64,000 nt of DNA from Candidatus Omnitrophota bacterium (GTDB lineage Bacteria > Omnitrophota > Gorgyraeia > Duberdicusellales > 4484-171). The stretch is from positions 509,855 through 573,854 of the forward strand of contig JBAZGN010000001.1 of assembly GCA_041652815.1 (NCBI GenBank), given 5' to 3'. Positions 38,895-61,817 of the stretch are shown in pieces (the stretch's first letter is position 1; each line of letters starts with the position of its first letter). Made by a program: the position numbers and the translations under genes. Under the pieces are notes generated by a model, which was given only the letters and a program-made list of their open reading frames with translations, had not been told where the DNA came from and did not search any database.

Positions 38895-39075
38895 TACACA
38901 GATGACAGACGCAGATGACCACAGATAAAGCTTGCGTCAATCGGTTGCGGTTACGCTGCTTGTATCGGTTGCGCCTTACGTCATGCGTCAGAAGAATAAT
39001 CTACGGGACGCGACCGAATAACCATAGACGAAACGAGCCGCGCAACCGTAAAACGCAACTAATTTTTTTAAATAA

Positions 39076-40284: not shown

Positions 40285-41059
40285 AAATTATACGATAGCT
40301 GTCACTATTCCTTCAAAAAATTCAGAAAAAAAGATTGCAAACTGCTTAGCTTCAATTAAGGACTGGGCAGATGAAATAATAGTTTTGGATAGCGAAAGTA
40401 TTGATAAGACTGTTGAAATTGCTAAAAGTTTCGGCGCCAAAGTATTTGTTCATCCCTTTTTGGGCAGTTGGGCAAAAGAAAGAAATTTCGGAGCCGAACA
40501 GGCAAACAGCAATTGGATACTTTCATTAGATACAGATGAGGTGGTGAGTGAAGATTTTAAGAAAAAATGCGATGATGTCCTGCCTAATACAAAATGCGCC
40601 GCATTTAAATTCTGGAGAAAAAATTTCTTTTTAGGCCACCCTTTTCGTTACGGTGGCTGGTACCATAAATCGCAGCATCTCTATAACAAAAAATTTGCAC
40701 ACTATGAAGGCATGTTGCATGAAAAATATATAGTAAATGGAGAGGTTGGAGATTTAGATGCAGAGGTTTTACATTATCCTTTTGACAGTATATCAGAATT
40801 TATCGAACGGCAGAACCGTTATACCAGCATACAGGCGATAGAAATCATCGCCGAGGAAAAAGACCTGGATATTAAAAAAATAAAATATAATCTTACCTGG
40901 AAACCGCTAAAACTATTTAAGAAAATGTATTTTAACAAAAAAGGCTACAAAGAAGGAATGCACGGTTTGGTCTTTTCGATTCTTTTTTCCTGGGTGCATT
41001 TCGTAAAATGGGCTAAAGTGTGGGAAATATATAATAATTCAGACCAAAAATCTAAGTAA
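40271..41059 (+). CDS. GT2 family glycosyltransferase (WaaE/KdtX-like LPS core transferase)
   Basis: IAVTIPSKNSEKKIANCLASIKDWADEIIVLDSESIDKT...LSLDTDE. ATG at 40271 follows an AAGGAG RBS; the track's 40256 start is a TTG. Confidence 0.75.
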   Translation: MPKNKNYTIAVTIPSKNSEKKIANCLASIKDWADEIIVLDSESIDKTVEIAKSFGAKVFVHPFLGSWAKERNFGAEQANSNWILSLDTDEVVSEDFKKKCDDVLPNTKCAAFKFWRKNFFLGHPFRYGGWYHKSQHLYNKKFAHYEGMLHEKYIVNGEVGDLDAEVLHYPFDSISEFIERQNRYTSIQAIEIIAEEKDLDIKKIKYNLTWKPLKLFKKMYFNKKGYKEGMHGLVFSILFSWVHFVKWAKVWEIYNNSDQKSK

Positions 41060-41295
41060 AACTCTAAACCCGAAATCCTAAACCCTAAACAATCCACGAG
41101 CCAGAACAAAGTTCGGTTCGGGGTTGCCCAGAATCGAATTTATTCTGGTTCTGGGTAAAATCGAAACTACAAATCACAAACCCTAAACGTTTCGAGTTTG
41201 GAGTTTCGTGTTTGTGATTTGTTTAGAGTTTTCCGCCAGAGGCGGATCCGCCTTATTTTTTTAAGGTGGCGGACGAGTTTAGTGTTTAGAGTTTT
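41059..41295. repeat. MITE-like element, copy B (TIRs AAACTCTAAAC / GTTTAGAGTTT; CTAAAC heptad repeats; internal stem ACAAATCACAAAC/GTTTGTGATTTGT; GC core; ~70-nt nested palindromic insert at 41091-41160)
   Basis: Aligns base-for-base with 58036-58205 apart from the insert. The left TIR supplies the TAA stop of the upstream GT2 gene. Confidence 0.7.
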
Positions 41296-41318
41296 AATGA
41301 GGCCTAATTTAGCAAGCT

Positions 41319-42461
41319 ATGTTTAAAAAAATACTTATCGTAAGAATAGGAAATATCGGCGATGTCTTATTCGCGACTCCGGTTATACGGAAACTGAGAA
41401 AAGTTTTTGGTAATGCCCAAATAGACATTTTAACATCCCCCCAGGGCAAGGTTGTGGTAGAAAAGAGCCCTTATTTAAATAATATATTTATTTACAGGAA
41501 ATTCCATAAAATAGAACGCTGGTTTAAAAAAAGAAAACTGCTTAAGGGGTTATTATTAAATAAATATGATTTATGCGTTGTGCTTGAGTCTAATCTTGAA
41601 TATACAAAGTTTGCTTATGAAATATCCAGGCATGCCTTGCGCATCGGCATAGATAGTGAGTTTGGAAAAAAGTTCTTGCACAAAACAGAAGAATTTTCCC
41701 GTAAGCGCCATGCTGTAGAAAATTATCTCTCTGTTGTTTCAAAATTATTAAATATTGAGCTTGCAGGCGACGATTATTCCATGGATTTTTTCTTTACCCC
41801 GTTAGAGAAAGCCGCCGACAGAGTTGGCGATGGCTATCAAGACGAAGATAACGGCTTAAAACTACTATCGAGCAGAAGTTCTCTAACGGGGTTTACTACC
41901 TGTGCCGATAGTGGAAATTTAGGTAAAGAAAAAGGAAAAGGTTTTTTTATTGTTCATTCTTCCTGCAGCAGTTATCTTCCAAGTAAAAGCTGGGAGATTG
42001 ACAAATTTGCAGAGGTCGCTAAATATCTAACTATCCACGGTTTCAGCGTATTTATCACCGGTGCAATCTCTGATTGCGAGCCGAAATTACTTCTTGAGAA
42101 ATTAAAAAATGAAAAAAATATTCATAGTTTTATCGGCAAGAACCTATATGAAGTAGCCTCTCTTATAAAGCAAGCCAAAGGGGTCATTTGCTTAGATACA
42201 GGCATTCTTCATATAACCCGTGCCCTGAATAAACCCCTTGTTTGTTTGTTTGGCCCTTCTGACCCGCTTCACACCGGCCCAATCGGCCCGGGAATATATA
42301 AAGTAATTAGAAAAGATTTTCGCTGCGGGCCGTGCCAATATTTTGCCGATTATAATAAAAAACAAAAAGAGAAATGTTTGGATGGAAAAATTACTCCCTG
42401 CATGAAAGCGATAGAGGTAGAGGAGGTAATAAAGAGCCTTAATAGTATAATTGATGGATAA
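41319..42461 (+). CDS. GT9 family glycosyltransferase (heptosyltransferase-like)
   Basis: ILIVRIGNIGDVLFATPVIR...FFIVHSSCSSYLPSKSW...CLDTGILHI. Confidence 0.75.
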   Translation: MFKKILIVRIGNIGDVLFATPVIRKLRKVFGNAQIDILTSPQGKVVVEKSPYLNNIFIYRKFHKIERWFKKRKLLKGLLLNKYDLCVVLESNLEYTKFAYEISRHALRIGIDSEFGKKFLHKTEEFSRKRHAVENYLSVVSKLLNIELAGDDYSMDFFFTPLEKAADRVGDGYQDEDNGLKLLSSRSSLTGFTTCADSGNLGKEKGKGFFIVHSSCSSYLPSKSWEIDKFAEVAKYLTIHGFSVFITGAISDCEPKLLLEKLKNEKNIHSFIGKNLYEVASLIKQAKGVICLDTGILHITRALNKPLVCLFGPSDPLHTGPIGPGIYKVIRKDFRCGPCQYFADYNKKQKEKCLDGKITPCMKAIEVEEVIKSLNSIIDG

Positions 42462-43428
42462 TAAAGAGATAAAAAAAATTTTCTTCATCCGTTCAGACCG
42501 GCTGGGCGAATTCCTTTTGAGCCTTTATGCGATTAAACTTGTAAAGTTAAATTACCCTGACAGCAAGGTATATCTTTTGGCTAAAAAAGATAATATTGAG
42601 CTGATTAAAGGAGTTGATTTTGTAGATTGTTTTTTGGAATATGAAAATAACGCTTTTGCCGGTTATAAAGGCGCATTTAATTTAAGCGGCATTCTAAGGA
42701 AAGAAAAAATAGATTGTGTAATTTCGCTTAATCCAAAAAAAGAATTTCATCTTGCTTCATTTTTGTCAGGCACACCTTTAAGGCTCGGTTATGACAGAAA
42801 ATGGGGATTTTGTTTGAACCGAAAAATAAAAGACGAAAAATATTTAGCCCAAAAACATGAAGCAGAATATAATTTTAATTTAGTAAAGCTGATATGCAAA
42901 AATGTTTTTACGCCTTCTTTGGATTTTCCCGTAGATGAACCTAACACGTTACATATGCTGGCAGAACATTTTAACTTATCGCAAAAATATATTGTCATAC
43001 ACCCGTTTAGTTCCAATCCTTTAAAAAAAATAGAGGATAATTTCTGGGAGAACCTTGTTTCAGCCTTAAAAGAAAAATGTACCGGTAACATTGTCCTTAT
43101 AGGTTCAAAAGAAGAGAGGCCTGAGAGTGAAAAACTGGCAGAAAAATTAAATGTAAAAAATATTACCGGAAATTTATCATTGAGGAATTTAGCCTCTTTT
43201 TTAAAACATAACTGCGCTTTATTCATCGGCCTTGATTCAGGGCCAATGCATTTAGCAAGTATTTTTAAAAAACCCGTTGTAGGGTTATTTAAAATATCAA
43301 GTTCAAGAAGATGGGGGCCGTTTAATACGCAATCTTTAATCTTAGAAAGTACCGATTTATCTGCGTTTTTGGCAAAAATCGAGGATATCCTTAAATTTGC
43401 TTGCGCAAACGCCGCAGGTAAAATATAA
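42454..43428 (+). CDS. GT9 family glycosyltransferase (heptosyltransferase-like)
   Basis: IFFIRSDRLGEFLLSLYAIKLVK...GLDSGPMHLASIFKKPVVGLF. ATG at 42454; the track's 42451 start is a TTG. Confidence 0.75.
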   Translation: MDNKEIKKIFFIRSDRLGEFLLSLYAIKLVKLNYPDSKVYLLAKKDNIELIKGVDFVDCFLEYENNAFAGYKGAFNLSGILRKEKIDCVISLNPKKEFHLASFLSGTPLRLGYDRKWGFCLNRKIKDEKYLAQKHEAEYNFNLVKLICKNVFTPSLDFPVDEPNTLHMLAEHFNLSQKYIVIHPFSSNPLKKIEDNFWENLVSALKEKCTGNIVLIGSKEERPESEKLAEKLNVKNITGNLSLRNLASFLKHNCALFIGLDSGPMHLASIFKKPVVGLFKISSSRRWGPFNTQSLILESTDLSAFLAKIEDILKFACANAAGKI

Positions 43429-43433
43429 TCATC

Positions 43434-43547
43434 TAAACGCGAATTATCGCGAATGTATACCTTTGTAAAATATTAAAGTATAAACGCTAATTTACGCGAA
43501 TGAATCTATTCGCGGCCATTCGCGTTTGATTAGCGAGAATCAGCGTT
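43434..43547. repeat. CGCGAAT-box intergenic element, copy R1 (contains the perfect IR CGCGAAT-gaatct-ATTCGCG at 43495-43514)
   Basis: Spans exactly from the upstream TAA to the ATG of the 43548 gene. The same ~120-nt pattern is at 54096-54221 and 61081-61259. Confidence 0.65.
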
Positions 43548-44345
43548 ATGAATAAAACAAAATTATCAATTGTGATACTTGCCAAAAATGAAGAAACAAG
43601 GATAAAAGACTGCCTTTCTTCAGTTGTTGGCTGGGCGGATGAAGTAATTGTAATCGATGATGAAAGTACGGATAGAACAGTTGCTATAGCCACGGAATTG
43701 GGTGCTAAGGTGTTTATTAAAAAAATGGATATCGAAGGCGCTCACCGTAACTGGGCATATGCAAAAGCAGCCAATGAGTGGATTTTAAGCCTTGATGCTG
43801 ATGAAAGGCCAACTGATGAATTAAAAGAAGAAATCAGTGCGCTTTTACCTACCAATCCCGCTCAAAGTGCCTTTACAATACCCAGAAGGAATTTTATCGG
43901 TGATTACTGGCTACGCTTCGGCGGACAATATCCAAGTGCCCAGCTTAAATTATTTAAAAAAAGTAAATTTAAATGGGAAGAGGTTGAAGTGCATCCGCGC
44001 CCTGAGCTGGATGGAGAATGCGGCCATCTTGCAAAAGACCTCATACATTATACCTATAGAGATTGGGCTGATTTTTTAAAAAAACTGAATAATCAAACCA
44101 GCCTAGAAGCTACAAAATGGTATAAACTTTCCCTGGAGAATCCTAAAAAAGCGCAATATAAGATGAATACTTTCCACGCTCTGTGGAGGACATTGGACAG
44201 ATTTATCCGCACCTATTTTGCCAAAAAAGGCCACCGTGACGGTTTTAATGGTTTTATGATTGCCTATTTTGCTTCGCTTTATCAAATAGTCAGTTACGCA
44301 AAATACCGTGAACTTAAGAATAAAGATAAATCGAAACACGATTGA
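43548..44345 (+). CDS. GT2 family glycosyltransferase (WaaE/KdtX-like; paralog of 40271-41059)
   Basis: LSIVILAKNEETRIKDCLSSVVGWADEVIVIDDESTDRT...LSLDADE. Confidence 0.75.
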   Translation: MNKTKLSIVILAKNEETRIKDCLSSVVGWADEVIVIDDESTDRTVAIATELGAKVFIKKMDIEGAHRNWAYAKAANEWILSLDADERPTDELKEEISALLPTNPAQSAFTIPRRNFIGDYWLRFGGQYPSAQLKLFKKSKFKWEEVEVHPRPELDGECGHLAKDLIHYTYRDWADFLKKLNNQTSLEATKWYKLSLENPKKAQYKMNTFHALWRTLDRFIRTYFAKKGHRDGFNGFMIAYFASLYQIVSYAKYRELKNKDKSKHD

Positions 44346-44478
44346 AACACAGTAGAAATACAATGGAAATACGGTAGAAATACAATTGTATTTCTATGTA
44401 TTTCACGAGCGAAGCGAGCATATTTCAACCGTATTTCTATTACATCTAAATCGCGCTTTACTTTAATCAACAAAAATA

Positions 44479-45696
44479 ATGTCTAAAAGGCGAATTATAA
44501 TTACCGGTTTGATAGCAATAATTTTTATTGCGCTCTTCTTCAGGTATGCTCATCGCGCCCCAAAGCGGCATTACTGCGATTTCAGGGTTTATTACAATAC
44601 CGCCCAAAGGTTTCTTGCCAAGGAAAATATTTACAGCCGTCCGGATGAAAGTATTACTCCTTTTAAATATTCAGCAGTTTTTGCGCTAATTACTTCACCG
44701 CTTGCGGTAGTATCCCAAAAACAGGCAAGCCTGATATTTTTCACTATAAGTTTTCTTCTGCTTATTCTTACATGCGTGCTTTCCAAGAAAATGATCGTAG
44801 AGCGGAATTTAAGCCCGGGGCAAAATTTCATAATTTATTTTTTCCCGGTATTTTTCAGCTCGCGTTTTATCTTCGCCGTTCTCGATTCCGGGCAGGTTAA
44901 CATAATGATATTTGCGTTAATAATTGCGGGGCTCTATTTATCGCAAAAGGAAAGAGACATTTCAGCCGCAGCATTGATTGCCTTGTCAGTTATGTTTAAA
45001 TATACGTCAATAATATTCTTGCCCTATTTTTTAATCCGCAGAAAGATAAAATTATCAATATTTATGATTTTATTTATGTTGTTTTATTGTTTTATTCCCG
45101 CAGCCTATGTAGGGATAAATACGAATTCGCAGTATCTTAAAAACTGGCTGCCATTTATAACAGAAACCTCTTTGGATAAAGGCTCGTGGTATGATGCGAA
45201 GAATCAGTCGCTTTATTCCTTTATCTTGCGTACATTTAGCGCGGATTCTTCCTTTAACCCCATAGCTCAATTAACCTTTATGCAGGCACTTGCCATTTCT
45301 GCAGCAATTGGAATGCTTATCTATCTTTTAATAATAGTTAAAAAGAAAAATAACGAGACAAAAGTTATTGATTATGCTCTTTTATTCCTATGTACGGCGT
45401 TGTTTAACCCAAATGCCTGGCTGGTAAATTTCGTAATTTTTGTTTTTGCATACATGGTAATTATCCGCCACCTGTTAACTGTAAAGTTTAAAGATAAAAT
45501 TACTTTAATTTTTATGGTGTTGTCTTTTATTTCTTCAAGCTGGGCAGCGGAATCTGTTGTTGGGGATAATTTGCAAAAATTCTTTGAATCGCTTTCAACA
45601 GTAACAATTGCAGCGCTTATTTTAGTGGTTATATTGTTATATTTAAAATTTAGTAGAGGAATAACCAAGTTCCAAGATACAATAACCAAACAATAA
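44479..45696 (+). CDS. DUF2029 / GT87-like polytopic membrane glycosyltransferase
   Basis: N-terminal DFRVYYNTAQRFLAKENIYS...PFKYSAVFALITSPL is typical of GT87/DUF2029 mannosyltransferase-like proteins. Confidence 0.5.
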   Translation: MSKRRIIITGLIAIIFIALFFRYAHRAPKRHYCDFRVYYNTAQRFLAKENIYSRPDESITPFKYSAVFALITSPLAVVSQKQASLIFFTISFLLLILTCVLSKKMIVERNLSPGQNFIIYFFPVFFSSRFIFAVLDSGQVNIMIFALIIAGLYLSQKERDISAAALIALSVMFKYTSIIFLPYFLIRRKIKLSIFMILFMLFYCFIPAAYVGINTNSQYLKNWLPFITETSLDKGSWYDAKNQSLYSFILRTFSADSSFNPIAQLTFMQALAISAAIGMLIYLLIIVKKKNNETKVIDYALLFLCTALFNPNAWLVNFVIFVFAYMVIIRHLLTVKFKDKITLIFMVLSFISSSWAAESVVGDNLQKFFESLSTVTIAALILVVILLYLKFSRGITKFQDTITKQ

Positions 45697-45871
45697 TCAA
45701 TAACCAAATTCTAATAACCAAACGGAAAAATCGATGGAATTGTTTGGTGATTGGTTATTGGAATTTGTTTGTATCTTGTATCTTGGTCATTGGTTATTTT
45801 ATGGGGTAATCCATACAACGAAGCAGTGTCGTAAACTATAAATTTCGTAATTCACGCGAGGTAGCGCAAGA

Positions 45872-47236
45872 ATGGACCAACAGAACTTCGGATTTTTAAA
45901 AACAGAAAAGGTTTACAGTATCTTTGAGTTGAATAATACCGTCAAAAAACTCATCCGTATGGATTTTCCTGACTATGTGTGGGTATGCGGCGAAATACAG
46001 GATTTACGCGACAGAGGCACTATAAATTTAAATCTTGTGCAAAAACATCCCGAGGCGAATGAAATAATGGCACAGGCTAATGCGGTTATTTTTGAAAATG
46101 TAAAACCGCAGATAACAAAGCGTATAGCAGAAACAAACGGAGCTTTTGAATTAAAGAAAGACATTGAAGTAAAACTGCTCTGTAAAGTTGATTTATATGT
46201 AAAGACAGGCAAATTCAGCCTGACTGTTTTTGATATCGATACTGTTTATACTTTGGGGAAAATGGCGGCATCCCGGCAAAGGATAATTGAAGAATTAAGG
46301 GCCAAGGGATTGCTTGAACGTAATAAGCTTATTCCAATGGCGCAAATTCCTTTAAAGGTAGGCCTTATAACTGCGCCTGATTCTGCCGCGTATCATGACG
46401 TGCTTGATGAGTTTAAAAAAAGTAAATATGGATTTAAAATATTTATATACAGCTGTTACATGCAAGGTAAATTAGTAGAAAGTGATGTAACCGCCGCGCT
46501 TAATTTCTTTAATAATTTATCACGAGATGAGCTTGATGTAATTATGATTGCAAGAGGCGGCGGCTCAACCGCAGATTTAAGCTGGTTTGACAATAAAAAA
46601 ATTGCCGAAACCGTAGCCATGCTGAAATTTCCTCTAATATCTGCCATAGGCCATGAGATAAATACAAGTATTACCGATATGGTTGCGCATACTTTTGTTA
46701 AAACTCCCACCAAGGGAGCTCAATTTATAATTGAAAGGGTGAAAGAATTTATCAATTCTCTGGAGGATATTGAACAAAGGATTGGGTTAGGAGTGAAAGA
46801 TTTTCTTGAGAATAGCAACAATCAACTGGCAATGTTAACCTCTAAATGCGATTCCGGTGCCAGCCGCTATTTTCAATTTCATAAAGAAGAGCTTTCATCG
46901 AAGAAAGCTAATATTAGTAATTTCACAAAAAAGTTTTTAAGTATGCGCCGGCAAGAGCTTTTAGGAAGTTACGATATTTTTAAATTAAAATTAAATACAC
47001 TTTTATCCGATTCACGTGATAGCATGAAGCATGCAGAAAGTAAGGTCCGGCTGCTTGATCCTAAAAATGTTTTAAAAAGAGGTTATTCCATAACCTTCAA
47101 GGATTCAAAGCCTATAAAATCTATTGACGATATAAATGAAAATGATATCATAAAAACCGTCCTTTATGAAGGTAATATCATTTCTCGCGTAGAAGAAAAA
47201 CAAAAGGAAAATGAGCAAAAAAACAATAAAATATAA
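45872..47236 (+). CDS. xseA: Exodeoxyribonuclease VII large subunit
   Basis: OB-fold N-terminus (VWVCGEIQDL), and LKVGLITAPDSAAYHDV...RGGGSTADLSWFDN. Confidence 0.85.
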   Translation: MDQQNFGFLKTEKVYSIFELNNTVKKLIRMDFPDYVWVCGEIQDLRDRGTINLNLVQKHPEANEIMAQANAVIFENVKPQITKRIAETNGAFELKKDIEVKLLCKVDLYVKTGKFSLTVFDIDTVYTLGKMAASRQRIIEELRAKGLLERNKLIPMAQIPLKVGLITAPDSAAYHDVLDEFKKSKYGFKIFIYSCYMQGKLVESDVTAALNFFNNLSRDELDVIMIARGGGSTADLSWFDNKKIAETVAMLKFPLISAIGHEINTSITDMVAHTFVKTPTKGAQFIIERVKEFINSLEDIEQRIGLGVKDFLENSNNQLAMLTSKCDSGASRYFQFHKEELSSKKANISNFTKKFLSMRRQELLGSYDIFKLKLNTLLSDSRDSMKHAESKVRLLDPKNVLKRGYSITFKDSKPIKSIDDINENDIIKTVLYEGNIISRVEEKQKENEQKNNKI

Positions 47237-47438
47237 CGAGGCGATTAACGAATTAAACGGCATACTTTCCGACTTAGAATCGGAAAGGGTAGATGTTGAT
47301 GAGTTGACTACTCGGGTAAAAAGAGCAGTTGAACTTATTAAATTATGCCGCGAAAAGATTGAAGAAACAGAGCTTGAAGTCAGAAAGATAGTTAAAGAAT
47401 TTGACAAAGGCTCGGATAAGGAAGAAACCGCCAAGTAA
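47211..47438 (+). CDS. xseB: Exodeoxyribonuclease VII small subunit
   Basis: 75 aa; YNEAINELNGILSDLESERVDVDELTTRVKRAVELIKLCREKIE. Overlaps xseA by 26 nt. Confidence 0.85.
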   Translation: MSKKTIKYNEAINELNGILSDLESERVDVDELTTRVKRAVELIKLCREKIEETELEVRKIVKEFDKGSDKEETAK

Positions 47439-47520
47439 ACTTCGAAAAGCTATCAGCTTTCGGCTTTCAGCTGCTGATAGCTTACGACTGATAGCTGAAA
47501 GCTTTCCCGGAGGTAATAAT

Positions 47521-48495
47521 ATGTTTAGTCTACGATTAAGAATGTCAATCCTGGTAATTATACTGTTTGCGATTCTTTATGCTATAGCATCGCTTATAAT
47601 GCATTATCTGGGTGTGCGAGGTTTCCTACCGCAAGTTTTACTCGCGGTTGGGATGATGCTTTTCCAATATCTGGTAGGCCCGAAAATTGTAGAGCTCTCG
47701 ATGCATGTAAAATATGTAAAAAAGGAAGATGTACCCTGGTTGTTTGAAATGGTTGAGGGTCTCTCCCGGCGGGCGAATGTTCCTATGCCCAAAATCGGGA
47801 TTGCCCATATAAACGTGCCGAATGCTTTTGCTTTCGGAAGAAGCCTGAAAGACGGAAGAATATGCGTTACCAAAGGTGTTCTGGACTTATTAAACAAAGA
47901 GGAACTGCGTGCTGTATTGGGCCATGAAATGACCCATCTAAAAAGCAGAGATGTTCTTTTTATCACTTTACTTTCGGTTGTACCGCTTATCTTATACTAT
48001 ATTTTTTTGCATTTCAGCCTTTATGGTTCGTATTCACGCAGGCGCGAAAGTGGAGGCTCCGCAGCTTTAATAGGTATTGCGGCATTCGTATTTTATTTCG
48101 TTACAAACCTTTTGGTTTTGTATGCTTCACGCATAAGAGAATATTTCGCGGATAAAGGTTCTTTAGATTTAGGAAACTCTCCGGCAAGCTTGGCAACAGC
48201 GCTCTACAAGCTTGTTTATGGCGCAGCCCGCCTTCCTAAAGAGAATTTACGCGAAATTGAAGGAGTGAAGGCTTTCTTTCTTAACGATTTATCCAAGGCA
48301 AAAAGCGAAATATCTGATTTGGCACAGCTTGATTTGGACAGAACAGGAACCATTGATCCTTATGAATTGCGTAGTTTAGCACAAAAGAAGATAAACTTAA
48401 GTTTTGCGGATAAGGCTATGGAGATTTTAAGCACCCATCCGAATATGCTAAAGCGCATAAAGCATCTTTCAGAGTATAACAAGGGGCAAGCTTAG
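47521..48495 (+). CDS. htpX: M48-family zinc metalloprotease HtpX
   Basis: HEMTHLKSRD (HExxH) and 4 transmembrane helices. ATG at 47521 follows a GGAGG RBS; the track's 47401 start is a TTG inside xseB. Confidence 0.8.
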   Translation: MFSLRLRMSILVIILFAILYAIASLIMHYLGVRGFLPQVLLAVGMMLFQYLVGPKIVELSMHVKYVKKEDVPWLFEMVEGLSRRANVPMPKIGIAHINVPNAFAFGRSLKDGRICVTKGVLDLLNKEELRAVLGHEMTHLKSRDVLFITLLSVVPLILYYIFLHFSLYGSYSRRRESGGSAALIGIAAFVFYFVTNLLVLYASRIREYFADKGSLDLGNSPASLATALYKLVYGAARLPKENLREIEGVKAFFLNDLSKAKSEISDLAQLDLDRTGTIDPYELRSLAQKKINLSFADKAMEILSTHPNMLKRIKHLSEYNKGQA

Positions 48496-48512
48496 GGGCA
48501 TATATTGGGCAT

Positions 48513-48545
48513 AGTGCAGTAAAATACCTGTTATTTTACTGCACT
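48513..48545 (+). terminator. Perfect 14-bp stem hairpin after htpX (AGTGCAGTAAAATA-cctgt-TATTTTACTGCACT); no U-tract
   Basis: The inverted repeat is directly visible in the sequence. The lack of a T-run makes intrinsic-terminator function uncertain. Confidence 0.4.
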
Positions 48546-48565
48546 GCCGTGTCCTAAAAAACTAA

Positions 48566-48594
48566 TTGACCCAAATTGGGATTTCTGCTATAAT
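48566..48594 (+). promoter_or_regulatory. Sigma70-type promoter TTGACC-17-TATAAT upstream of the rpsO leader
   Basis: ttgacc at 48566-48571 and tataat at 48589-48594, followed by a ~145-nt GC-rich structured leader (GGCCAAAGGCC hairpin, T-tract at 48683-48689). Confidence 0.5.
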
Positions 48595-48741
48595 CTATTT
48601 TAGCTAAAAGTTTCTGCCTACGCTAAACGGCTCCGGCAGACAGTCCAGCAGGCCAAAGGCCTAGTGGGTAAGCTTGCCTTCCCTTTTTTCAACAGAAGCC
48701 TAAGGGTTGACAGAAAAACAATAAAAAGGTATTATATTATT

Positions 48742-49005: not shown

Positions 49006-49006
49006 A

Positions 49007-51088: not shown

Positions 51089-53358
51089 AGCGAGCCCCTG
51101 ATTTTTTTAAAAATAGCGCTTTGATATATGCCTCGATATCGATAGCTTTCTCAATAGTCTTAATTTTAAGCCTTTTTTCATACACCTCAAAAGATATCGC
51201 GTTCTTAAGCCAATCTAATTCCCACACTACACACAATATTATCGGAATAGCCGGAGCTTACTTTGCTTTTGTTTTAAGATTTTTATTCGGAAGAGCGGCT
51301 TATTTTATACCTTTTTGCCTTATAGGCCTTGGGCTGGCTAAAATAGGAATATTACGTTTTTACGGTATAAGCAAAAGTAAGACCATCGATACAATTGCTG
51401 CTTTAATATTTATTGTATCGCTTTCCGCCTTTATGGGGCTGTTATTTGCGAAAGCAGGTGCCGGCTGGGAGTATTCAGATGGCGTTGTCGGGTTTTATCT
51501 CTCGCAGTTTTTTGAAAGTTATCTTGGTTTTTCCGGTTCTTTAATCGTACTTAGTTTAATTCTTATCATAATGAGCCTTTTGTTTTTTGGTTTTTTCTTT
51601 GTAGATGTTTTTAAAGGAACAAGGCTTGCTTTTTCTATGGTAAGTGAATTTATCGCGGAAAGAAGGAATAGAAAAGTAGAAACTAACGGCGATTTCCTGA
51701 TTGCTAAGAAAAAGAAACTGAAAGACGCCTCCCTCAGGCAGATCGAAGATGAAGATAAAGAAAAAGCTGCAACAAAAGTACGCCCCGCAATAAAACCGGA
51801 AATAAAAATGTATACTCCGAAGATAAATCAGCCGCAATCGCAGGCACAGGCGCAGGCGAGCAAGATAGACAATGATAAACTTGTTAATAAAGAAGAAATA
51901 AAAAAGCAGATAGACGGGCTTAATCCGGATAATGCCAAAACATTTGATCCAAAAACCTACAAGTTGCCTTCGATAGGCCTTTTGAAGGTGCCGTCTTCGC
52001 TTGATTACCGTGAGGTAAAAGAGGATGTAGAGGCAAGCATTAAGAATCTTGAAGAAACACTTTCCGATTTCGGTGTTGAGGCGAAAGTTGTAAGTGTCCA
52101 GAAAGGCCCGGTTGTGACAATGTATGAATTAGAGCCTTCCCCGGGGGTTAAGATTACAAAAATATCCGCCCTTTCCGATGACATAGCGCTTTCCATGAAA
52201 TCATCTTCGGTAAGAATTGTTGCGCCCATACCGGGAAGAGGCACTGTTGGCGTAGAAGTTCCCAATGAGAAGAAACATTTGGTTTATTTAAGGGAAATTC
52301 TTGAGGAAAAAATATTTTCCGACTCTAGCTCAAAATTAACTTTGACTATCGGAAAAGACGTTTCAGGAAATCCCGTGATTGCTGATTTAAAGGAAATGCC
52401 TCACCTTTTGATAGCCGGCACAACCGGTTCGGGGAAAACAGTTTGCGTTAATACGATAATTACTTCAATTTTGTTTAAAGCAAAGCCTGATGAAGTAAAG
52501 TTTATTCTTGTGGACCCAAAGATGGTTGAACTTGCTCCTTTTGCCGGCATACCGCACCTACTGCACCCGATTATCTATGAGTCAAAAAAAGCATTTATTA
52601 CTTTGAACTGGGCTGTTGAAGAAATGGAAAGGCGTTATCATCTTCTTGCCTCTGAAGGCGCAAGGAATATCGATGTATATAACAAAAGCGGCAAGAAAAT
52701 GCCTTTTATCATAATAATAGTTGATGAATTGGCAGATTTAATGGTAGTTGCAAAAGAGAGCATAGAAGTTTCTATACAGCGCCTGGCGCAGCTTTCCAGG
52801 GCAGTTGGCATTCATCTTATCCTTGCAACGCAAAGGCCGTCCGTTGACGTTATAACCGGAGTAATTAAGGCAAATTTTCCGGCACGAATTTCTTTTAAAG
52901 TTTCTTCCAAGGTAGACTCTCGCACAGTGCTCGATGTTATGGGTGCAGATAAACTTCTTGGCAAGGGGGACTTATTATTTTTAAAACCGGGAGCACCTAA
53001 GCTTATCCGCGCGCAAGGTTCCCTTATTGACGATGAAGATATTAATAATCTTATTACCTTCATAAAGAACCAGGGCGGCCCGGTTTATGAAGCAGGCATT
53101 TTAGAGGGAGAAAAGAAAGCCGCGATGCATGTTCAGTCTGATGAATTGATAGATGAAGCAGTTAAAACGATATTACAGGCACGGCAAGCTTCAGCTTCTA
53201 TTCTGCAAAGACGGCTTAGAGTTGGTTATACCCGCGCAGCAAGGCTGCTTGATTTGATGGAACAACAGGGAATAGTTGGGCCATTTTGCGGAAGCAAAGC
53301 CAGGGAAATTCTGGTTGATCCGCAAGATTATTTGAAAGAAAAAGAAGGGGCCGTATGA
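51085..53358 (+). CDS. ftsK: DNA translocase FtsK/SpoIIIE
   Basis: N-terminal transmembrane helices, HLLIAGTTGSGKTVCVN Walker A, and a C-terminal gamma winged-helix. ATGA overlap with pnp. Confidence 0.9.
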   Translation: MKRAPDFFKNSALIYASISIAFSIVLILSLFSYTSKDIAFLSQSNSHTTHNIIGIAGAYFAFVLRFLFGRAAYFIPFCLIGLGLAKIGILRFYGISKSKTIDTIAALIFIVSLSAFMGLLFAKAGAGWEYSDGVVGFYLSQFFESYLGFSGSLIVLSLILIIMSLLFFGFFFVDVFKGTRLAFSMVSEFIAERRNRKVETNGDFLIAKKKKLKDASLRQIEDEDKEKAATKVRPAIKPEIKMYTPKINQPQSQAQAQASKIDNDKLVNKEEIKKQIDGLNPDNAKTFDPKTYKLPSIGLLKVPSSLDYREVKEDVEASIKNLEETLSDFGVEAKVVSVQKGPVVTMYELEPSPGVKITKISALSDDIALSMKSSSVRIVAPIPGRGTVGVEVPNEKKHLVYLREILEEKIFSDSSSKLTLTIGKDVSGNPVIADLKEMPHLLIAGTTGSGKTVCVNTIITSILFKAKPDEVKFILVDPKMVELAPFAGIPHLLHPIIYESKKAFITLNWAVEEMERRYHLLASEGARNIDVYNKSGKKMPFIIIIVDELADLMVVAKESIEVSIQRLAQLSRAVGIHLILATQRPSVDVITGVIKANFPARISFKVSSKVDSRTVLDVMGADKLLGKGDLLFLKPGAPKLIRAQGSLIDDEDINNLITFIKNQGGPVYEAGILEGEKKAAMHVQSDELIDEAVKTILQARQASASILQRRLRVGYTRAARLLDLMEQQGIVGPFCGSKAREILVDPQDYLKEKEGAV

Positions 53359-54098
53359 CGATAGAAGAACTTTGTGTAAAATTACAGCAGAAAAGAAATA
53401 CTCTTGGGCTTACTCTTGAAGAGGTTGTTGAAAAAACCAAGTTGTACCCTTCCGTAATAAGAGATATAGAATCCGGCAGTTTAAGCAATATAAGTAATGC
53501 GTATCTTAAAGGCTACATAAAGATATATGCATCTTTTCTTAGCGTAGATGTTGAAGATGCGTTAGATAAAATTAATCTTGCTCAAGCCAACCTATCCAAG
53601 GTTGCGCCGGTAAAAGAGGAAAAACAGGTAGAGGAAAAACCAAAATTAAAGCTTAAGCCCCTGCCGCCAAAAGTTAAAAAAATTATTTTTTATTTGATAG
53701 CGCTAATATTTATTTTATGGATAGCAACGGGAGCGATTCGTTTCGTTTCAAAAAACTTTACAAAATTAGCGAAAAAACCTGTGAAAAGAACTGCAGCGGC
53801 AGTTATAAAAATTCCAGCCATTTCCAAAAAAATGCAAAATGAGGTTAATGCAGCGCTTACGGCAAAGAGAGATTGTTTTATAAGAACCAAGGTTGACGGT
53901 AAAGTTCTTTTTGAGGGAGTGATTAAAAAAGGAATGTCTGAAAGCTGGAAGGGAAATCGTGAAATAGAATTCAAGATAAGTGACGGCTCTGCCGTGTATC
54001 TCGAAGTAAACGGGAAATCTTTGCCATCCTTAACCTCTTCGTCAAAATCAATAAAAAGCCTGAAAGTAAACTCATCCGGAATCTCTATTGTTAAGTAA
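53355..54098 (+). CDS. rodZ: RodZ-like cytoskeleton protein (HTH_25 + TM + DUF4115)
   Basis: The N-terminal HTH (LGLTLEEVVEKTKLYPSVIRDIESG), a single transmembrane helix, and a C-terminal beta-rich domain. Confidence 0.6.
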   Translation: MTIEELCVKLQQKRNTLGLTLEEVVEKTKLYPSVIRDIESGSLSNISNAYLKGYIKIYASFLSVDVEDALDKINLAQANLSKVAPVKEEKQVEEKPKLKLKPLPPKVKKIIFYLIALIFILWIATGAIRFVSKNFTKLAKKPVKRTAAAVIKIPAISKKMQNEVNAALTAKRDCFIRTKVDGKVLFEGVIKKGMSESWKGNREIEFKISDGSAVYLEVNGKSLPSLTSSSKSIKSLKVNSSGISIVK

Positions 54099-54221
54099 AC
54101 GCGAATATTCGCAAATTTTAACCCTAATAGTTTCATTAAGGTATAAGCGCGAATTCACGCGAATGATTAAATAGTAATTTATTCGCGACTATTTGCGTTA
54201 GATTCGCGATAATTAGCGTAT
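54096..54221. repeat. CGCGAAT-box intergenic element, copy R2
   Basis: taaacgcgaatattcgc...aggtataagcgcgaattcacgcgaatg...ttattcgcgac...gattcgcgataattagcgtat abutting the ATG at 54222. Confidence 0.65.
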
Positions 54222-55496
54222 ATGAAGAGAAAAAATTTATCAATTGTGTCCCTTGGTTGTTTCAGAAATACCTATGACTCTGAAACTGTATTGAATAGGT
54301 TTTTGGAGCAAGGGTATAGTTTTTCTTCCCGGGAAAATATTTTTCTTACAGGAAAGGATAATTTTAAATCCTGCGACACTCTGCTTGTAAATACGTGCGG
54401 TTTTATCGACCGCGCAAAAGAGGAATCCATAGAATTTATCAGGCAGGCAGTCCGGTTGAAGAAGGAAGGCAAAGTAAAAAGTTTGTTTGTTTTTGGTTGT
54501 CTTGTTGAGCGGTATCAGGAGAAACTAAAGGCATCTTTCCCGGAAGTTGATAAATGGTGGGGGACGGAAAATTTTCCCCAAAACGAAATCCGGCAGAAGA
54601 AAATTATGCCGGCACACCTTGATTTTATAAAAATATGCGAAGGCTGTCTTAATAAATGCACTTATTGCACAATACCTCAAATAAAGGGAGATTTAAGAAG
54701 CAAACCCAAAGAGCAAATCATAAATGAAGTAAAATTCCTGGATAAAAAGGGCATAAAAGAATTAAATATTATCGGCCAGGATATAACCAGTTGGGCAAAA
54801 GATTTAAAGACAAAAGATGATTTATCTTCTTTGCTTCGCGCAATACTTAAAACGACAAAAAACATAAGCTGGATAAGGCTTCTTTATACTCATCCGCGCC
54901 ACGTTAGCGACAAGTTGATAGACCTGATTGCCAACGAAGAACGAATATGTAAATATATTGATTTGCCCATCCAGCATATAAATGATAGAATTCTACAATT
55001 GATGAATAGAGGTGTTACAAAAAAACAAATAACCAGCCTAATTAAAAAGATAAGAAAAAATATTAAAAGCTGTGTTATAAGAACGTCAGTTATGGCGGGG
55101 TTTCCTACGGAAACCGCCGATGAATTTAAAGAGCTGTTAAATTTTTTGAAAGAAACCAGGTTTGAACGTCTCGGCGCATTTACGTATTCCAGGGAAGAAA
55201 ATACCCCAGCATTCAGTTTAGAGCCCCAGGTGCATAATAAAGTTAAGCTGTCGCGTTTTAAAGAGATTATGAGCCTGCAGCAAGGTATTTCCTGTGAAGT
55301 TAACAAGCGGTTCCTTGATAAACACCTTGATGTTTTGATTGAAGAGAAAGATAATGAAGTTTTCATAGGAAGAACGCAATTCGATGCTTATGAAGTTGAC
55401 GGGGTAGTGTTTTTGAAGAAAAAAAACCTTAAACTAGGGAAATTTTATAAAGCGAAAATAATCGATAACTATGATTATGATTTGGTTGGCATTTAA
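54222..55496 (+). CDS. rimO: Radical SAM methylthiotransferase, RimO/MiaB family (probably ribosomal protein S12 methylthiotransferase)
   Basis: N-terminal MTTase domain (SLGCFRNTYDSE), CEGCLNKCTYCTIP radical SAM motif, and a C-terminal TRAM domain; 424 aa. Confidence 0.7.
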   Translation: MKRKNLSIVSLGCFRNTYDSETVLNRFLEQGYSFSSRENIFLTGKDNFKSCDTLLVNTCGFIDRAKEESIEFIRQAVRLKKEGKVKSLFVFGCLVERYQEKLKASFPEVDKWWGTENFPQNEIRQKKIMPAHLDFIKICEGCLNKCTYCTIPQIKGDLRSKPKEQIINEVKFLDKKGIKELNIIGQDITSWAKDLKTKDDLSSLLRAILKTTKNISWIRLLYTHPRHVSDKLIDLIANEERICKYIDLPIQHINDRILQLMNRGVTKKQITSLIKKIRKNIKSCVIRTSVMAGFPTETADEFKELLNFLKETRFERLGAFTYSREENTPAFSLEPQVHNKVKLSRFKEIMSLQQGISCEVNKRFLDKHLDVLIEEKDNEVFIGRTQFDAYEVDGVVFLKKKNLKLGKFYKAKIIDNYDYDLVGI

Positions 55497-55621
55497 CACA
55501 GATAATCACAAATTTGAACCAGATTATCACAGATGATATGAATTCTGTAACACGTCACAGGTAACACGTTTTTAAAACGTGATACGTGTGACGTGTAACG
55601 TGATACCTGCTGTGTATTAAT

Positions 55622-56191
55622 ATGAACATCGCAAATTACCTCACATTCTTAAGGATTATCCTGGCATTTATCTGCATCGGATTTATACTGCATAATGATT
55701 TTAATTCAATCTTTATTGCCTTTATAATTTTTATTATTGCCTCGATAACTGACTTGCTTGATGGTATATTTGCCAGAAGGCAGAATCTTATATCGGACCT
55801 TGGAAAATTGCTTGATCCAATCGCCGATAAAATTTTAATCATCGGTGTATTCCTCGCGTTTTTGCAGCTTAAAGTAGTAGTAAATGCCTGGATGGTAAGC
55901 GTTATAATGCTTAGGGAATTTATTATTACGGGGCTACGGCTTTATGTTTTAAAATCAGGCGAAGTCCTTGAGGCAAAAAGGTGGGGCAAGCATAAAACGG
56001 TTTCACAAGTATTTGGGATAGTTGTAATTTTTATATCTTTGCTGCTTTTCAGAAAATTTCCTCAAAATAGCCTCGTTATTTTTCTATATGAAAAAGTAAC
56101 ACATGTAATAATGTGGTACGTTGTTCTTATCACTCTTTTTTCCGGCGTATCTTATTTTTGGATAAATAGAAAGTTGATAAAGACGTTTTAG
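55622..56191 (+). CDS. pgsA: CDP-diacylglycerol--glycerol-3-phosphate 3-phosphatidyltransferase
   Basis: NIANYLTFLRIIL and DLLDGIFARRQNLISDLGKLLDPIADK (CDP-alcohol phosphatidyltransferase motif). Confidence 0.85.
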   Translation: MNIANYLTFLRIILAFICIGFILHNDFNSIFIAFIIFIIASITDLLDGIFARRQNLISDLGKLLDPIADKILIIGVFLAFLQLKVVVNAWMVSVIMLREFIITGLRLYVLKSGEVLEAKRWGKHKTVSQVFGIVVIFISLLLFRKFPQNSLVIFLYEKVTHVIMWYVVLITLFSGVSYFWINRKLIKTF

Positions 56192-56282
56192 CAAAAAGGT
56201 TGAGGTTAAGGTTTAGGTTGAGAAATGCAAAGTTTAGTCTGATCCTTAACCTCAACCTTAGCCTTAACCTTCTTTTGGAACC

Positions 56283-56744
56283 ATGAAGAAGACATCTCTA
56301 TTAGATAAATTGTGCATAGCAATAACCACGCTTTTTGGAATCGGCTACGCACCACTTTTTAGCGGGACATTGGCTTCAGTTGTGGCAGTTATTGTTTTTC
56401 TGCTAATAAAAACAAGGCTCTACTTTTTGATTTTCACCGCTATCTCAATATTGCTTTCTTTTCTACTTGCCAGCCGTGCGGAAAAGATTTTTAAAGAAAA
56501 AGACTGCAAAAAAATAGTTATTGATGATTTCTCCGGTATGCTTTTAGCTCTTTTGCTTGTTCCTTATGATATTCGGTTTGTGGTTTGTGCCTTCATACTT
56601 TTCCGCGTATTTGACGCTTTTAAAATCCCACCCATAGATAAAATTGAACGGTTAAACGGCGCAGCAGGGGTTGTTGGTGATGACCTAATGGCTGGATTTT
56701 ATTCGCTGGTTGCGCTGCAGATAGTCAGATTGTTTGTGAGATAG
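56283..56744 (+). CDS. pgpA: Phosphatidylglycerophosphatase A
   Basis: GIGYAPLFSGTLASVVAV...VIDDFSGMLLALL...GAAGVVGDDLMAGFYS. Confidence 0.8.
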   Translation: MKKTSLLDKLCIAITTLFGIGYAPLFSGTLASVVAVIVFLLIKTRLYFLIFTAISILLSFLLASRAEKIFKEKDCKKIVIDDFSGMLLALLLVPYDIRFVVCAFILFRVFDAFKIPPIDKIERLNGAAGVVGDDLMAGFYSLVALQIVRLFVR

Positions 56745-56760
56745 AAACCAAAGTGGAGCC

Positions 56761-56785
56761 GTAGGACGTAAAGCGTGGGATGTCC
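56761..56785. repeat. Left inverted repeat (GGACGTAAAGCGTGGGATGTCC; ACGTNNN heptads) flanking the TPR gene
   Basis: 19 of 21 nt complementary to 57432-57466. Confidence 0.5.
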
Positions 56786-56929
56786 GCTCGCTTTGCTCGC
56801 TAGGACGAGAGACGAAAGAAAATGAAAGGGCGAAGATAGAAAGAATAAAATTTTTTACTTTATGGCCCCTGTGATAATCTATTACAGAGGGGTTTTAAAT
56901 GGTATAAGTTGTTACAAGAAAGGAGAACG

Positions 56930-57331
56930 ATGAAGAATAAAAAAATTATCGTAATTTCAATTGTTATACTTCTGTTACTTGCCATAATATACGGACTTTT
57001 TCTATTGAGACCTTTCTTTTGGTGGTGTAGGGGCAGCATCTATGAACAACAGCAACCAGAGCGGGCAATATATTATTTCAATAAGGCGATACTAATGAGG
57101 CCAGATTACGTAGAAGCATATTTTTATTCAAGGTTTAAAGGGGAAGGCAAAAATCTCTCAGCATATAGCGGTGGTTTAGCTGTTTGTTACCAGATTCTTG
57201 GCGAAAACGATAAAGCAAGAGAATATTATAATAAGGCACTCGAACTATATCATAAACACGGCGATAAAACAGGCGTTATAGTATTGATAAATGCTAATCT
57301 AAAATTACTAGATAATAGGAATAAAAAATAG
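56930..57331 (+). CDS. Small membrane-anchored tetratricopeptide-repeat protein
   Basis: N-terminal transmembrane helix and TPR-like AIYYFNKAILMRPDYVEAYF...AREYYNKALELY. ATG at 56930 follows an AAAGGAGAACG RBS; the track's 56909 start is a TTG. Confidence 0.55.
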   Translation: MKNKKIIVISIVILLLLAIIYGLFLLRPFFWWCRGSIYEQQQPERAIYYFNKAILMRPDYVEAYFYSRFKGEGKNLSAYSGGLAVCYQILGENDKAREYYNKALELYHKHGDKTGVIVLINANLKLLDNRNKK

Positions 57332-57431
57332 TTTAGATTATATTATTTATCTTTCTATGGATTTTTCTGTTTCTTCTGAATATAACCGATAGCAAAATTC
57401 ATCCAGTCAAAGCCACCTTCACCTTTCCGAG

Positions 57432-57466
57432 CTTCTATTGTCCACGTTCTACGTCCCACGTTTTAC
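57432..57466. repeat. Right inverted repeat flanking the TPR gene
   Basis: gtccacgttctacgtcccacgttttacgtcc; its reverse complement contains GGACGTAAAACGTGGGACGT. Confidence 0.5.
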
Positions 57467-57474
57467 GTCCTTCT

Positions 57475-58023
57475 TTATCCTTGTAACGGCGCGCAGAATA
57501 ATTTTTCATAAACCGGGCCGGTAGGCTTAAGTAGGCTTTTAAAAAGAATTATTTCGCTAACTGCAAACTTAGCTTCAATAGTCATACCTTTCATTTCATT
57601 CTTAAGGCAATCAATATTTCTTTTAGTTCGAAACCTTGCAATAGTAAGGTGAGATTTAAAACGGCCTTCCTTAGGAAAACCCAAGCTTTCAAGCTTATCT
57701 TCAAGCTGTAGGGAGATATTTTTTAATATTTCCTCATTGTCTGTTGATATAAAAAATACTCTCGGTGATGTTTCGTTAGGGAAAAAACCAAAGCTGCCTA
57801 CGTTAAGTTCCAATTGACTGAAATTACCGGCAGTTGTTTTTATTATATTTTTAATTTTATCGAGCTGTTCCTCAGAAACTTCCCCCAAAAACTTTAAAGT
57901 CATATGAATGTTTGAAGTATTAACCCATTTTGCATCTAAATCACATTTTTTAAGCCTGGTAACTGCGCGCGATAATTTTTCTTTTAAATCTTCCGGAATG
58001 TCTATGGCAATGAATAAACGCAT
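57475..58023 (-). CDS. thpR: RNA 2',3'-cyclic phosphodiesterase (2H family, LigT/ThpR)
   Basis: Two H-x-[TS]-x motifs (HMTLKFLG and HLTIARF); 182 aa. Confidence 0.8.
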   Translation of the reverse strand: MRLFIAIDIPEDLKEKLSRAVTRLKKCDLDAKWVNTSNIHMTLKFLGEVSEEQLDKIKNIIKTTAGNFSQLELNVGSFGFFPNETSPRVFFISTDNEEILKNISLQLEDKLESLGFPKEGRFKSHLTIARFRTKRNIDCLKNEMKGMTIEAKFAVSEIILFKSLLKPTGPVYEKLFCAPLQG

Positions 58024-58035
58024 ATTTTTTCTTAA

Positions 58036-58205
58036 AAACTCTAAATCCGAAACCCTAAACTCTAAACAAACTCGAAACTACAAATCACAAACTCTAAACG
58101 TTTCAAGTTTATGGTTTCGTGTTTGTAGTTTGTTTAGGATTTCCCGCCTTAGGCGGGTCCGCCTTATTTTTTAAAGGTGGCGGAAGAGTTTAGTGTTTAG
58201 AGTTT
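58036..58205. repeat. MITE-like element, copy C (same TIRs and GC core as copy B, lacking the nested insert)
   Basis: About 90% identical to 41059-41295 outside the insert. Its right TIR supplies the last codons and stop of the minus-strand cinA-like gene. Confidence 0.7.
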
Positions 58206-61769: not shown

Positions 61770-61817
61770 AGCAGGCATTAGATTCTCTGTTATCTGTTAT
61801 CTGTTTTCTGAAACCCA

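Follow-up and report, generated by a model that had tools for sequence, protein, structure and literature searches.

The window analysed here, a stretch of 64,000 nt from a Candidatus Omnitrophota genome (contig JBAZGN010000001.1, positions 509,855 to 573,854), carries four copies of a core made of two small GC-rich hairpins, each surrounded by longer inverted repeats. These composite repeats are probably nested, non-autonomous selfish DNA, in which the double-hairpin core resides within AT-rich intergenic hairpins built of short tandem motifs. The core is a separate module, not the centre of one element bounded by terminal inverted repeats (TIRs), and behaves as an insertion specific in site and orientation, precise at its ends and without duplication. 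Its site is the DNA of the tRNA T-loop, and it therefore lands in the T-loops of tRNA remnants and in look-alikes within AT-rich intergenic DNA. The arms are long imperfect hairpins that fill the spacers of this Omnitrophica lineage and are gained and lost between related genomes. The element boundaries, the covariation of the paired bases, the independence of core and arms, the site consensus, the empty orthologous sites and the lack of gene association are all direct observations. An earlier note on this DNA had proposed a single element resembling a miniature inverted-repeat transposable element (MITE), with 11-bp TIRs, in two near-identical copies and a divergent third; its picture of a non-coding dispersed hairpin repeat stands, but the core proves independent of the arms.

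Core and arms as separate modules

Copies B and C (Table 1) belong to one CTAAAC family and bear the core in the 3' arm. They can be aligned end to end except for a 68-nt segment specific to B, and the repeat search gave 88% identity over 138 nt (41157-41294 vs 58068-58205), in agreement with the near-identity first described. Both are bounded by AAACTCTAAA(C/T)...GTTTAGAGTTT, which form inverted repeats of 11-12 bp, and the internal stem ACAAATCACAAAC/GTTTGTGATTTGT recognised earlier is perfect in B and contains two mismatches in C. The inverted ends are nevertheless the base of a long imperfect tandem-motif hairpin: the whole of copy C folds as one such hairpin, with the core as a side branch of its 3' arm (-37.6 kcal/mol as DNA, z -6.5). 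The additional palindrome of B exists as a 68-nt hairpin, but no second copy of it was found in the window or in any retrieved locus. The suggestion that the repeats donate the stop codon of the adjoining gene holds for C, where the CinA stop codon (58190-58192) lies inside the right arm and the protein ends in RRL-NSKH, its last ~4 codons being unlike those of the orthologues; at B, only 1-2 nt of the arm are shared with the stop codon (41057-41059).

The pattern CCGCC-N3-GGCGG-N-TCCGCC matches three times on the + strand of the window, against 0.00 expected (none in 100 shuffles), and a fourth, slightly different core in copy D, which the earlier note had not recorded, was recovered by the repeat search and by a covariance model. 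This model, built from 37 cores, gives exactly four matches in the window, all on the + strand and scoring 51-67 bits, the next-best match reaching 10 bits. The core consists of two neighbouring 6-bp hairpins with no linker between them (42-48 nt in the window, 41-53 nt elsewhere). The first (H1) has the form [U/C]CCGCC, a 3-4-nt loop and GGCGG[A/G], and the second (H2) the form U[C/U]CGCC, an AT-rich loop of 15-21 nt usually ending in GGT, and GGCG[G/A]A. The two-hairpin fold is the minimum-energy structure with both RNA and DNA parameters and on either strand (RNA fold z -3.5 to -6.3; DNA fold -11.7 to -12.7 kcal/mol, z ~-3.8 to -4.0). The T-run that had been placed behind the core is the loop of H2; it is confined to one core subtype and is missing from A and D.

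Among the 37 core sequences 98% of the stem cells are paired, as compared with just 32-63% in shifted registers, and none of 500 shuffles matched the observed percentage of pairing, number of cells changed on both sides or covariation score. The closing pair of H1 is U-A in 26 of the 37 and C-G in seven, and B and C differ from each other in this way, while the H2 stem reads UUCGCC/GGCGAA in D and UGCGC/GCGCA in a copy from the candidate phyla radiation (CPR). Variants found by the model are likewise fully compensated: UCAGCC/GGCUGA together with CCCGCC/GGCGGG in L027 and L057, and CUCGCC/GGCGAG in L058 and L034 (L-numbers designate loci retrieved from other genomes or contigs and compared with the window). 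These compensatory changes indicate that the pairing is under selection; the covariation is silent on whether it acts in RNA or in single-stranded DNA. A hairpin unit GUCCGCC-ACG-GGCGGAC is nested within the H2 loop of one core (L015, 387-436), and runs of single 15-nt hairpins of the form NCNGCC-NNN-GGCNGN occur in L034 (5960-6030); these nested and serial arrangements suggest that the basic unit is a 15-nt hairpin.

The independence of the core from its surroundings is visible within the window, where it occurs in three unrelated arm families; two of these families also exist without it. Copy A, regarded in the earlier note as a divergent third member, shares the core alone with B and C. The E family is represented by one copy with the core (D) and by two without, and the junctions can be compared directly: a coreless copy reads ...GCGTTT^GATTAGCG... 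where D reads ...GCATT[core]GATTCGCG.... The same holds for the CTAAAC family in another metagenome-assembled genome (MAG; JAJYOP01), which contains one coreless copy (L006, 1490-1620) and two core-bearing copies. Moreover, the core subtypes, recognised by their H2 loop, are shuffled relative to the arm types. The TTATTTTTT subtype is found with CTAAAC arms in B and C and with CGCAGAT arms in L059 (95.6% identity over 45 nt), and the CACATATAAAA subtype with CTAAAC arms in JAJYOP01 (L006, L057), with AATTTCTA arms in A and with others (including L022 and L042). L057 bears, in addition, a second core of another subtype at the mirror position in the opposite arm.

The E family is itself a repeat of 115-135 nt running up to the start codons of three unrelated genes of the window. 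Its conserved central segment, AACCTTnATAGTTT..GGTATAAAC, is promoter-like in appearance, and a copy with 80% identity stands beside a tRNA-Lys gene in another Omnitrophota MAG (L053, 3654-3768).

Table 1. Core-bearing copies, coreless relatives and tandem-motif hairpins in the window
Feature	Position	Strand	Remarks
Copy A, AATTTCTA-type hairpin	36225-36328	+	17-nt arms (36225-36241 and 36312-36328) enclosing the core
Core of A	36259-36306	+	H2 loop subtype CACACATAAAAAGTCATCGGT
Copy B, composite CTAAAC/GTTTAG tandem-motif long hairpin	41059-41295	+	Between GT2 and GT9 genes; carries the core and a unique nested hairpin
B-specific 68-nt hairpin, left-arm insert	41093-41160	+	-36.3 kcal/mol
Core of B	41232-41273	+	H1 TCCGCC-AGA-GGCGGA; H2 TCCGCC-TTATTTTTTTAAGGT-GGCGGA; DNA fold -11.8 kcal/mol, z -3.8
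Copy C, composite CTAAAC hairpin	58036-58205	+	Between CinA (58190-58663, -) and LigT (57475-58023, -); absent at 4 orthologous loci
Core of C	58143-58184	+	H1 CCCGCC-TTA-GGCGGG (closing pair C-G; U-A in B); H2 TCCGCC...GGCGGA
Copy D, CGCGAAT/ATTCGCG E-family element	61124-61259	+	Immediately 5' of a 4Fe-4S protein gene; bears the fourth core
Core of D	61188-61235	+	H1 loop of 4 nt; H2 TTCGCC...GGCGAA, compensated relative to TCCGCC...GGCGGA
E-family copy without core	43429-43547	+	Paralogous empty site ...CGCGTTT^GATTAGCG...
E-family copy without core	54099-54221	+	Paralogous empty site ...GCGTTA^GATTCGCG...
Tandem-motif hairpin, GGTTRA	56192-56282
Tandem-motif hairpin, GTAGAAATACA	44346-44478
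Tandem-motif hairpin, AATAACCAA	45697-45871
Tandem-motif hairpin, GTAACACGT	55497-55621
Further spacer hairpins of tandem-motif type	38895-39075, 61770-61870, 11752-11866

Distribution, insertion site and empty orthologous sites

A scan with the exact core pattern over one genome per species retrieved 60 loci, of which ~38 are credible (low GC content, the same flanks, often several per MAG), the others being chance matches in genomes of more than 60% GC. The credible copies number ~40 in ~25 MAGs labelled as Omnitrophota (at least 11), Planctomycetia/Pirellulales, Kiritimatiellae, Victivallales, several CPR lineages, uncultured Gammaproteobacteria and Edwardsbacteria, and a collection of viral contigs gave a single core match. 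Further copies therefore exist in other genomes, as had been anticipated, and no annotated non-coding RNA family covers the element: the window gave no Rfam match at the gathering score, and copy B none over its core at E <= 10. Searches of the literature for the motif, for repeats of Omnitrophota and for insertions into T-loops yielded no description of the core.

In loci from CPR, Pirellulales and Gammaproteobacteria the core is situated 20-190 nt 3' of tRNA genes, within partial tRNA copies whose flanks read, on the minus strand of the core, ...GGTTC^[core]^GAATCC.... It splits the T-loop of these partial copies between C56 and R57 (L031, L045, L003, L058, L029, L043). In the first four of these loci the copies begin at the anticodon loop or at the T-arm, reach the 3' end and resemble the intact tRNA just upstream, while in L029 and L043 the T-arm and 3' end derive from a different tRNA. 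Once the core is deleted, five copies from L031, L045, L003 and L058 match the neighbouring intact tRNA at 45/51, 42/51 (Ser-TGA), 49/57 (Ser-GGA), 23/24 (Gly) and 25/31 (Thr) positions, and the T-loop returns to exactly 7 nt; the boundaries of the element are therefore the outer bases of its hairpins, and no duplication accompanies it.

L011 (5130-5248) contains a near-complete tRNA-Pro(CGG)-like gene with the core in its T-loop, a TTGACA/TATACA promoter-like pair on its 5' side and a T-run on its 3' side. Deletion of the core yields a tRNA-Pro(CGG) predicted by ARAGORN with three stem mismatches, and the gene is probably a pseudogene; when each core was deleted in turn, a new tRNA was predicted in L011 only. 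The cores are not tRNAs themselves, a tRNA search of the loci having been negative on this point. With regard to tRNA introns, the hosts are partial tRNA copies, and neither bulge-helix-bulge geometry nor a group I core was found in the element.

Several of the tRNA-associated loci contain tandem arrays of partial tRNAs directly 3' of an intact tRNA gene (L031 830-1216, L045 2603-3700, L058 3712-4810, L003 2600-2904). These CPR and gammaproteobacterial arrays are made of 3' halves, or of the T-arm plus the acceptor strand, several of them with a double hairpin in the T-loop. In L003 (4039-4481), a partial tRNA-Ile(GAT) copy adjoining the intact gene has a group I intron in its anticodon loop (Rfam RF00028, 83 bits), and its T-loop holds a double hairpin of a short-loop variant.

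A logo of the site was built from 41 copies, each oriented by its core. The consensus is G..TTC^AAATCC in fixed orientation, with T at -3 in 29/41, T at -2 in 33/41 and A at +2 in 37/41, and the four window copies match it loosely (ACTCG^AAACTC, ACTCT^AAATCC, GATTG^AAATTG and GAATC^AATGCG). The flanks close into a stem of at least 4 bp in 11 of the 41 copies, compared with 3.3 +/- 1.6 for shuffled flank pairs. The coreless E-family sites read AATC^AAAC on the core minus strand, so that the conservation of the flanks is a property of the target, not of the inserted element. The window lacks the target octamer TTCRAATC altogether (8.4 +/- 2.9 occurrences expected, 0 found), but this depletion was dropped as evidence, because 3% of the octamers of the same composition are also absent and the relatives carry the octamer.

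Comparison with related genomes revealed empty orthologous sites for A and C, which the earlier note had named as something to look for. On four metagenome contigs, LigT is 78-90% identical to that of the window and CinA lies upstream, with copy C absent. The CinA-LigT spacer measures 15, 17 and 55 nt in three of these relatives, against 166 nt in the window, and in the closest relative it measures ~100 nt and is occupied by a coreless hairpin with another motif (GCGCATAGCG). In L094, a contig syntenic with the lipopolysaccharide (LPS) cluster, the place of copy A and its 153-nt spacer is taken by a 4-nt overlap (ATGA) of the GT4 and GT1 genes, and the Bac_transf and Wzy genes likewise overlap at the position of a 181-nt hairpin of CACAGAT type in the window. 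The covariance model found no core in 117 kb of further loci containing homologues of LigT and of a four-helix-bundle protein, ~40 kb of which come from close relatives.

The same turnover characterises the arms in general. About a dozen of the window spacers of 50 nt or more are long imperfect hairpins, in which the left arm consists of a short motif in tandem and the right arm of its complement, and each region of the window has its own motif (Table 1). Orthologous positions in relatives hold hairpins of other motifs or have no spacer, and the MiaB-PgsA spacer in particular shows differently motifed hairpins or none. L025 and L030, from a MAG labelled Planctomycetia, are built alike and also bear the core in the 3' arm.

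Mode of spread and alternative explanations

The behaviour of the core, its two hairpins and the unpaired GGT most resemble single-strand hairpin transposons such as IS200/IS605 and the repetitive extragenic palindromic (REP) sequences with their REP-associated tyrosine transposases (RAYTs). By analogy with these systems, both core hairpins would fold in single-stranded DNA, and a hairpin-recognising transposase of HUH/Y1 type acting in trans would cut and rejoin the strand. This route would be the likeliest mechanism, while in itself it is rather doubtful. REPs and their inverted pairs (REPINs), which depend on a Y1 HUH enzyme, share with the core small imperfect palindromes, an extragenic and non-coding nature and occurrence in either orientation, and the core would similarly be mobilised in trans; inverted pairs also occur occasionally, L057 having one core per arm. 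The REP superfamilies carry a GTAG or CGTC tag (PMC3733652). The core stems, in contrast, are flanked by ..ATTY and GAA.. and lack such a tag; the core also differs in that its unit comprises two direct hairpins, is exactly bounded, has a defined target and is shared across phyla, and no RAYT gene was seen in the window. REPs are usually lineage-specific. With IS200/IS605 and their derivatives without an open reading frame (ORF), the PATEs, the core has in common a hairpin at each end, no TIR, no target duplication and insertion in fixed orientation by a short specific sequence, in this case after TTC; the unpaired GGT beside H2 recalls the extrahelical bases read by the TnpA of IS608. It differs from them in its total length of 42-53 nt and in that no TnpA or TnpB was found.

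Several observations weigh against the selfish-DNA interpretation or its single-strand step. The feet of the core hairpins are the junctions themselves, leaving no guide or linker segments, unlike IS608. A Pfam scan of 50 window ORFs, which comprise envelope/LPS glycosyltransferases and housekeeping genes, found no transposase, integrase, reverse transcriptase or RAYT, and none recurs near the other copies; the mobilising enzyme is therefore hypothetical. An orientation bias with respect to replication is expected for elements of IS200/IS605 type. None was observed, the orientation relative to the local GC skew being 20:14 (p = 0.39, n = 34) in what is a weak test on 8-kb loci; the + strand of the window, which holds all four cores, is G-rich throughout. 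The HUH/Y1 step is graded as low as it is because of these three points, namely the missing linker or guide segments, the lack of a candidate enzyme and the lack of strand bias. Near-identity over ~45 nt across phyla is unusual for REP-like repeats and could instead speak for a host factor that is conserved, or for a function at the RNA level; since the collection by exact pattern fixed most of the stem bases and the GGT, this cross-phylum invariance is partly a matter of construction. Finally, no pair of filled and empty sites within one species was seen: the sole other contig with an identical LigT has the same 166-nt CinA-LigT spacer and the same core.

A role as a functional structured RNA or transcript signal (3'-end protection by a hairpin, processing by RNase III or otherwise, pausing or termination) is the best surviving alternative, although an unlikely one. 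The core would then be selected in operon spacers and after tRNA genes, its spread being secondary. Such selection would fit the compensatory changes that preserve the hairpins and the location of nearly all copies either in the spacers of genes running in the same direction or 20-190 nt 3' of tRNA genes, and conservation across phyla would be expected from a conserved host factor. The palindrome and T-run of B, C and L059 are terminator-like and were flagged by a terminator scan, in which the matches of the region did not exceed those of shuffles (8 vs 8.9; 11 vs 8.0). The orientation of the core with respect to the flanking genes is, however, balanced at ~50:50 (13 opposite/opposite vs 10-13 same/same), C being antisense to both of its neighbours, and the T-run is missing from A, D and most subtypes. 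In addition, close relatives do without the core, with genes even overlapping at the same sites, and the core interrupts the T-loops of tRNA remnants and has no Rfam match. The general terminator role suggested in the earlier note is not borne out, given the subtype-specific T-run and these orientations. B and C do share with intrinsic terminators a GC-rich stem followed by a T-run, and the long arm hairpins end in A-tract...T-tract, but this T-run is part of the H2 loop and restricted to one subtype, and the core is conserved across phyla, which terminators are not. Clustering of the ORFs within 2.5 kb of ~40 copies found no gene family common to more than two loci, so that the core is neither the cis-regulator of a gene class nor a neighbour of a transposase. 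If nested selfish DNA is the correct account, any RNA-level effect on operons (stability, pausing) would be secondary.

A single MITE family, with TIRs, arms and core mobilised together by a DDE transposase and A counted as a diverged copy, appears quite improbable. The 88% identity of B and C over their 138-nt shared part, core included, the 11-12-bp inverted ends, the copies of the same family in another MAG (L006, L057) and the empty orthologous site of C are what this model would lead one to expect. It is opposed by the presence of the core in at least three unrelated arm families of the window, by the two coreless arm families and by the free combination of core subtypes with arm types. 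Moreover, the flanks of the B, C, L006 and L057 copies are A/T-rich (TAA, AAA) and differ between copies, with no consistent target-site duplication readable, and no autonomous element sharing these ends came to light among the 50 scanned ORFs. For the core the MITE model is already contradicted, whereas as an account of the spread of the arm hairpins alone it may still hold.

We regard as highly improbable a route through RNA, in which an intron-like or reverse-splicing hairpin would enter the T-loops of tRNAs, or similar RNA loops, and return to DNA by reverse transcription. It would explain the copies of tRNA 3' halves starting near position 37: a cDNA primed at the tRNA 3' end and stopped at the modified position 37 would resemble such 3' parts, and those of L031 and L045 start in or just after the anticodon loop. 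Insertion exactly between C56 and R57 of T-loops and the near-full-length tRNA-Pro-like gene bearing a core are in line with it as well. Conserved unpaired nucleotides of the kind found in ribozymes are, however, lacking, no reverse transcriptase gene was seen in the window, and most copies lie in non-tRNA DNA in both orientations to transcription; the tRNA of L011, with its three stem mismatches, is pseudogene-like, and other partial copies begin elsewhere, for example with the T-arm only (L029, L043).

A double-stranded binding site for a regulator or nucleoid protein, suggested by the alternating orientation of four GGCGG pentamers and by the 12-bp palindrome GGCGGATCCGCC at the centre, both invariant in most copies, is scarcely credible, as the spacing of the third and fourth pentamers ranges from 3 to 25 nt among the retrieved copies and a short-loop variant exists, the changes are compensatory within hairpins and not kept per half-site, and no class of regulated genes is apparent.

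To return to the selfish-DNA interpretation, the closest described counterparts of the core, by architecture, are the double-hairpin elements (DHEs) of fungal mitochondria. According to the passage of PMC10085805 that cites Paquin et al. 2000, those of Allomyces, Schizosaccharomyces octosporus and S. osmophilus are short GC-rich double hairpins, located between genes or occasionally in structural RNA genes, near-identical between species and thought to be mobile, the enzyme not being known. The likeness concerns architecture only: two adjacent GC-rich hairpins of tens of nt, dispersed in AT-rich DNA and conserved between species. The hosts here are bacteria instead of mitochondria, and the copies are often nested in tandem-motif hairpins. 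To our knowledge, no T-loop-like target has been reported for DHEs.

It is possible, and we propose it with reserve, that the core represents an undescribed, ultra-small (~45 nt) site-specific mobile element of bacteria, a "bacterial double-hairpin element" that targets the tRNA T-loop at TTC^RAATCC across phyla and is moved by an enzyme or through RNA; the tandem-motif hairpins, some with a PF05635 gene, may be a second mobile class resembling the intervening sequences (IVSs) of 23S rRNA. If so, two hairpins alone would constitute a minimal mobile unit, its exact 8-9-nt target, the tRNA T-loop, would be among the most conserved sequences in biology, and the mitochondrial DHEs, themselves unexplained, would have a bacterial counterpart. 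Genes flanked by the same hairpins would offer a handle in the hunt for the enzyme; split versions (H1 and half of H2, then a gene, then GGTGGCGGA) were not present among the retrieved loci. In Omnitrophota operons the elements separate genes that are closely packed or overlap; they also change the 3' ends of genes, as at the C-terminus of CinA, and in CPR genomes they mark remnants of tRNA genes. Annotation pipelines leave all such features blank.

PF05635 cassettes and other spacers

A gene for a "23S rRNA intervening-sequence protein" (PF05635, 34728-35102; a four-helix bundle, Avd-like) forms the loop of a tandem-motif hairpin at 34694-35133. The bracketing repeat, AAGTTCTAAGTTGTAAGTTCTAAG and its complement (AAGTTCTAAGTTGTAAG / CTTACAACTTAGAACTT), overlaps the stop codon of the upstream gene. 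Homologous cassettes (L082, L086, L090, L091) are bracketed alike, one of them with a different motif, ACGTTCTA. IVSs of 23S rRNA with an S23p ORF, as in Coxiella burnetii, are selfish insertions bounded by long stem-forming inverted repeats (PMC4990558). The arms, though not the core, resemble them in their long inverted-repeat stem and in the presence of members of the S23p/IVS-protein family in hairpin loops, both in the window and in relatives. The window hairpins differ from IVSs in lying between protein-coding genes and not in rRNA, and most are without ORF; a possible link between ORF-carrying and ORF-less hairpins is no more than a lead.

Three other apparent spacers of the window deserve mention. 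A divergent intergenic region of 564 nt (5653-6216) contains several GC-rich stems and has no Rfam match. The spacer at 47237-47400 looks coding and may hold a small XseB-like ORF after XseA, below the ORF cut-off of 80 aa. The spacer at 60850-61075, equally below this cut-off, also looks coding: it is a NifU-like ORF for which the related contig L062 has a gene call.

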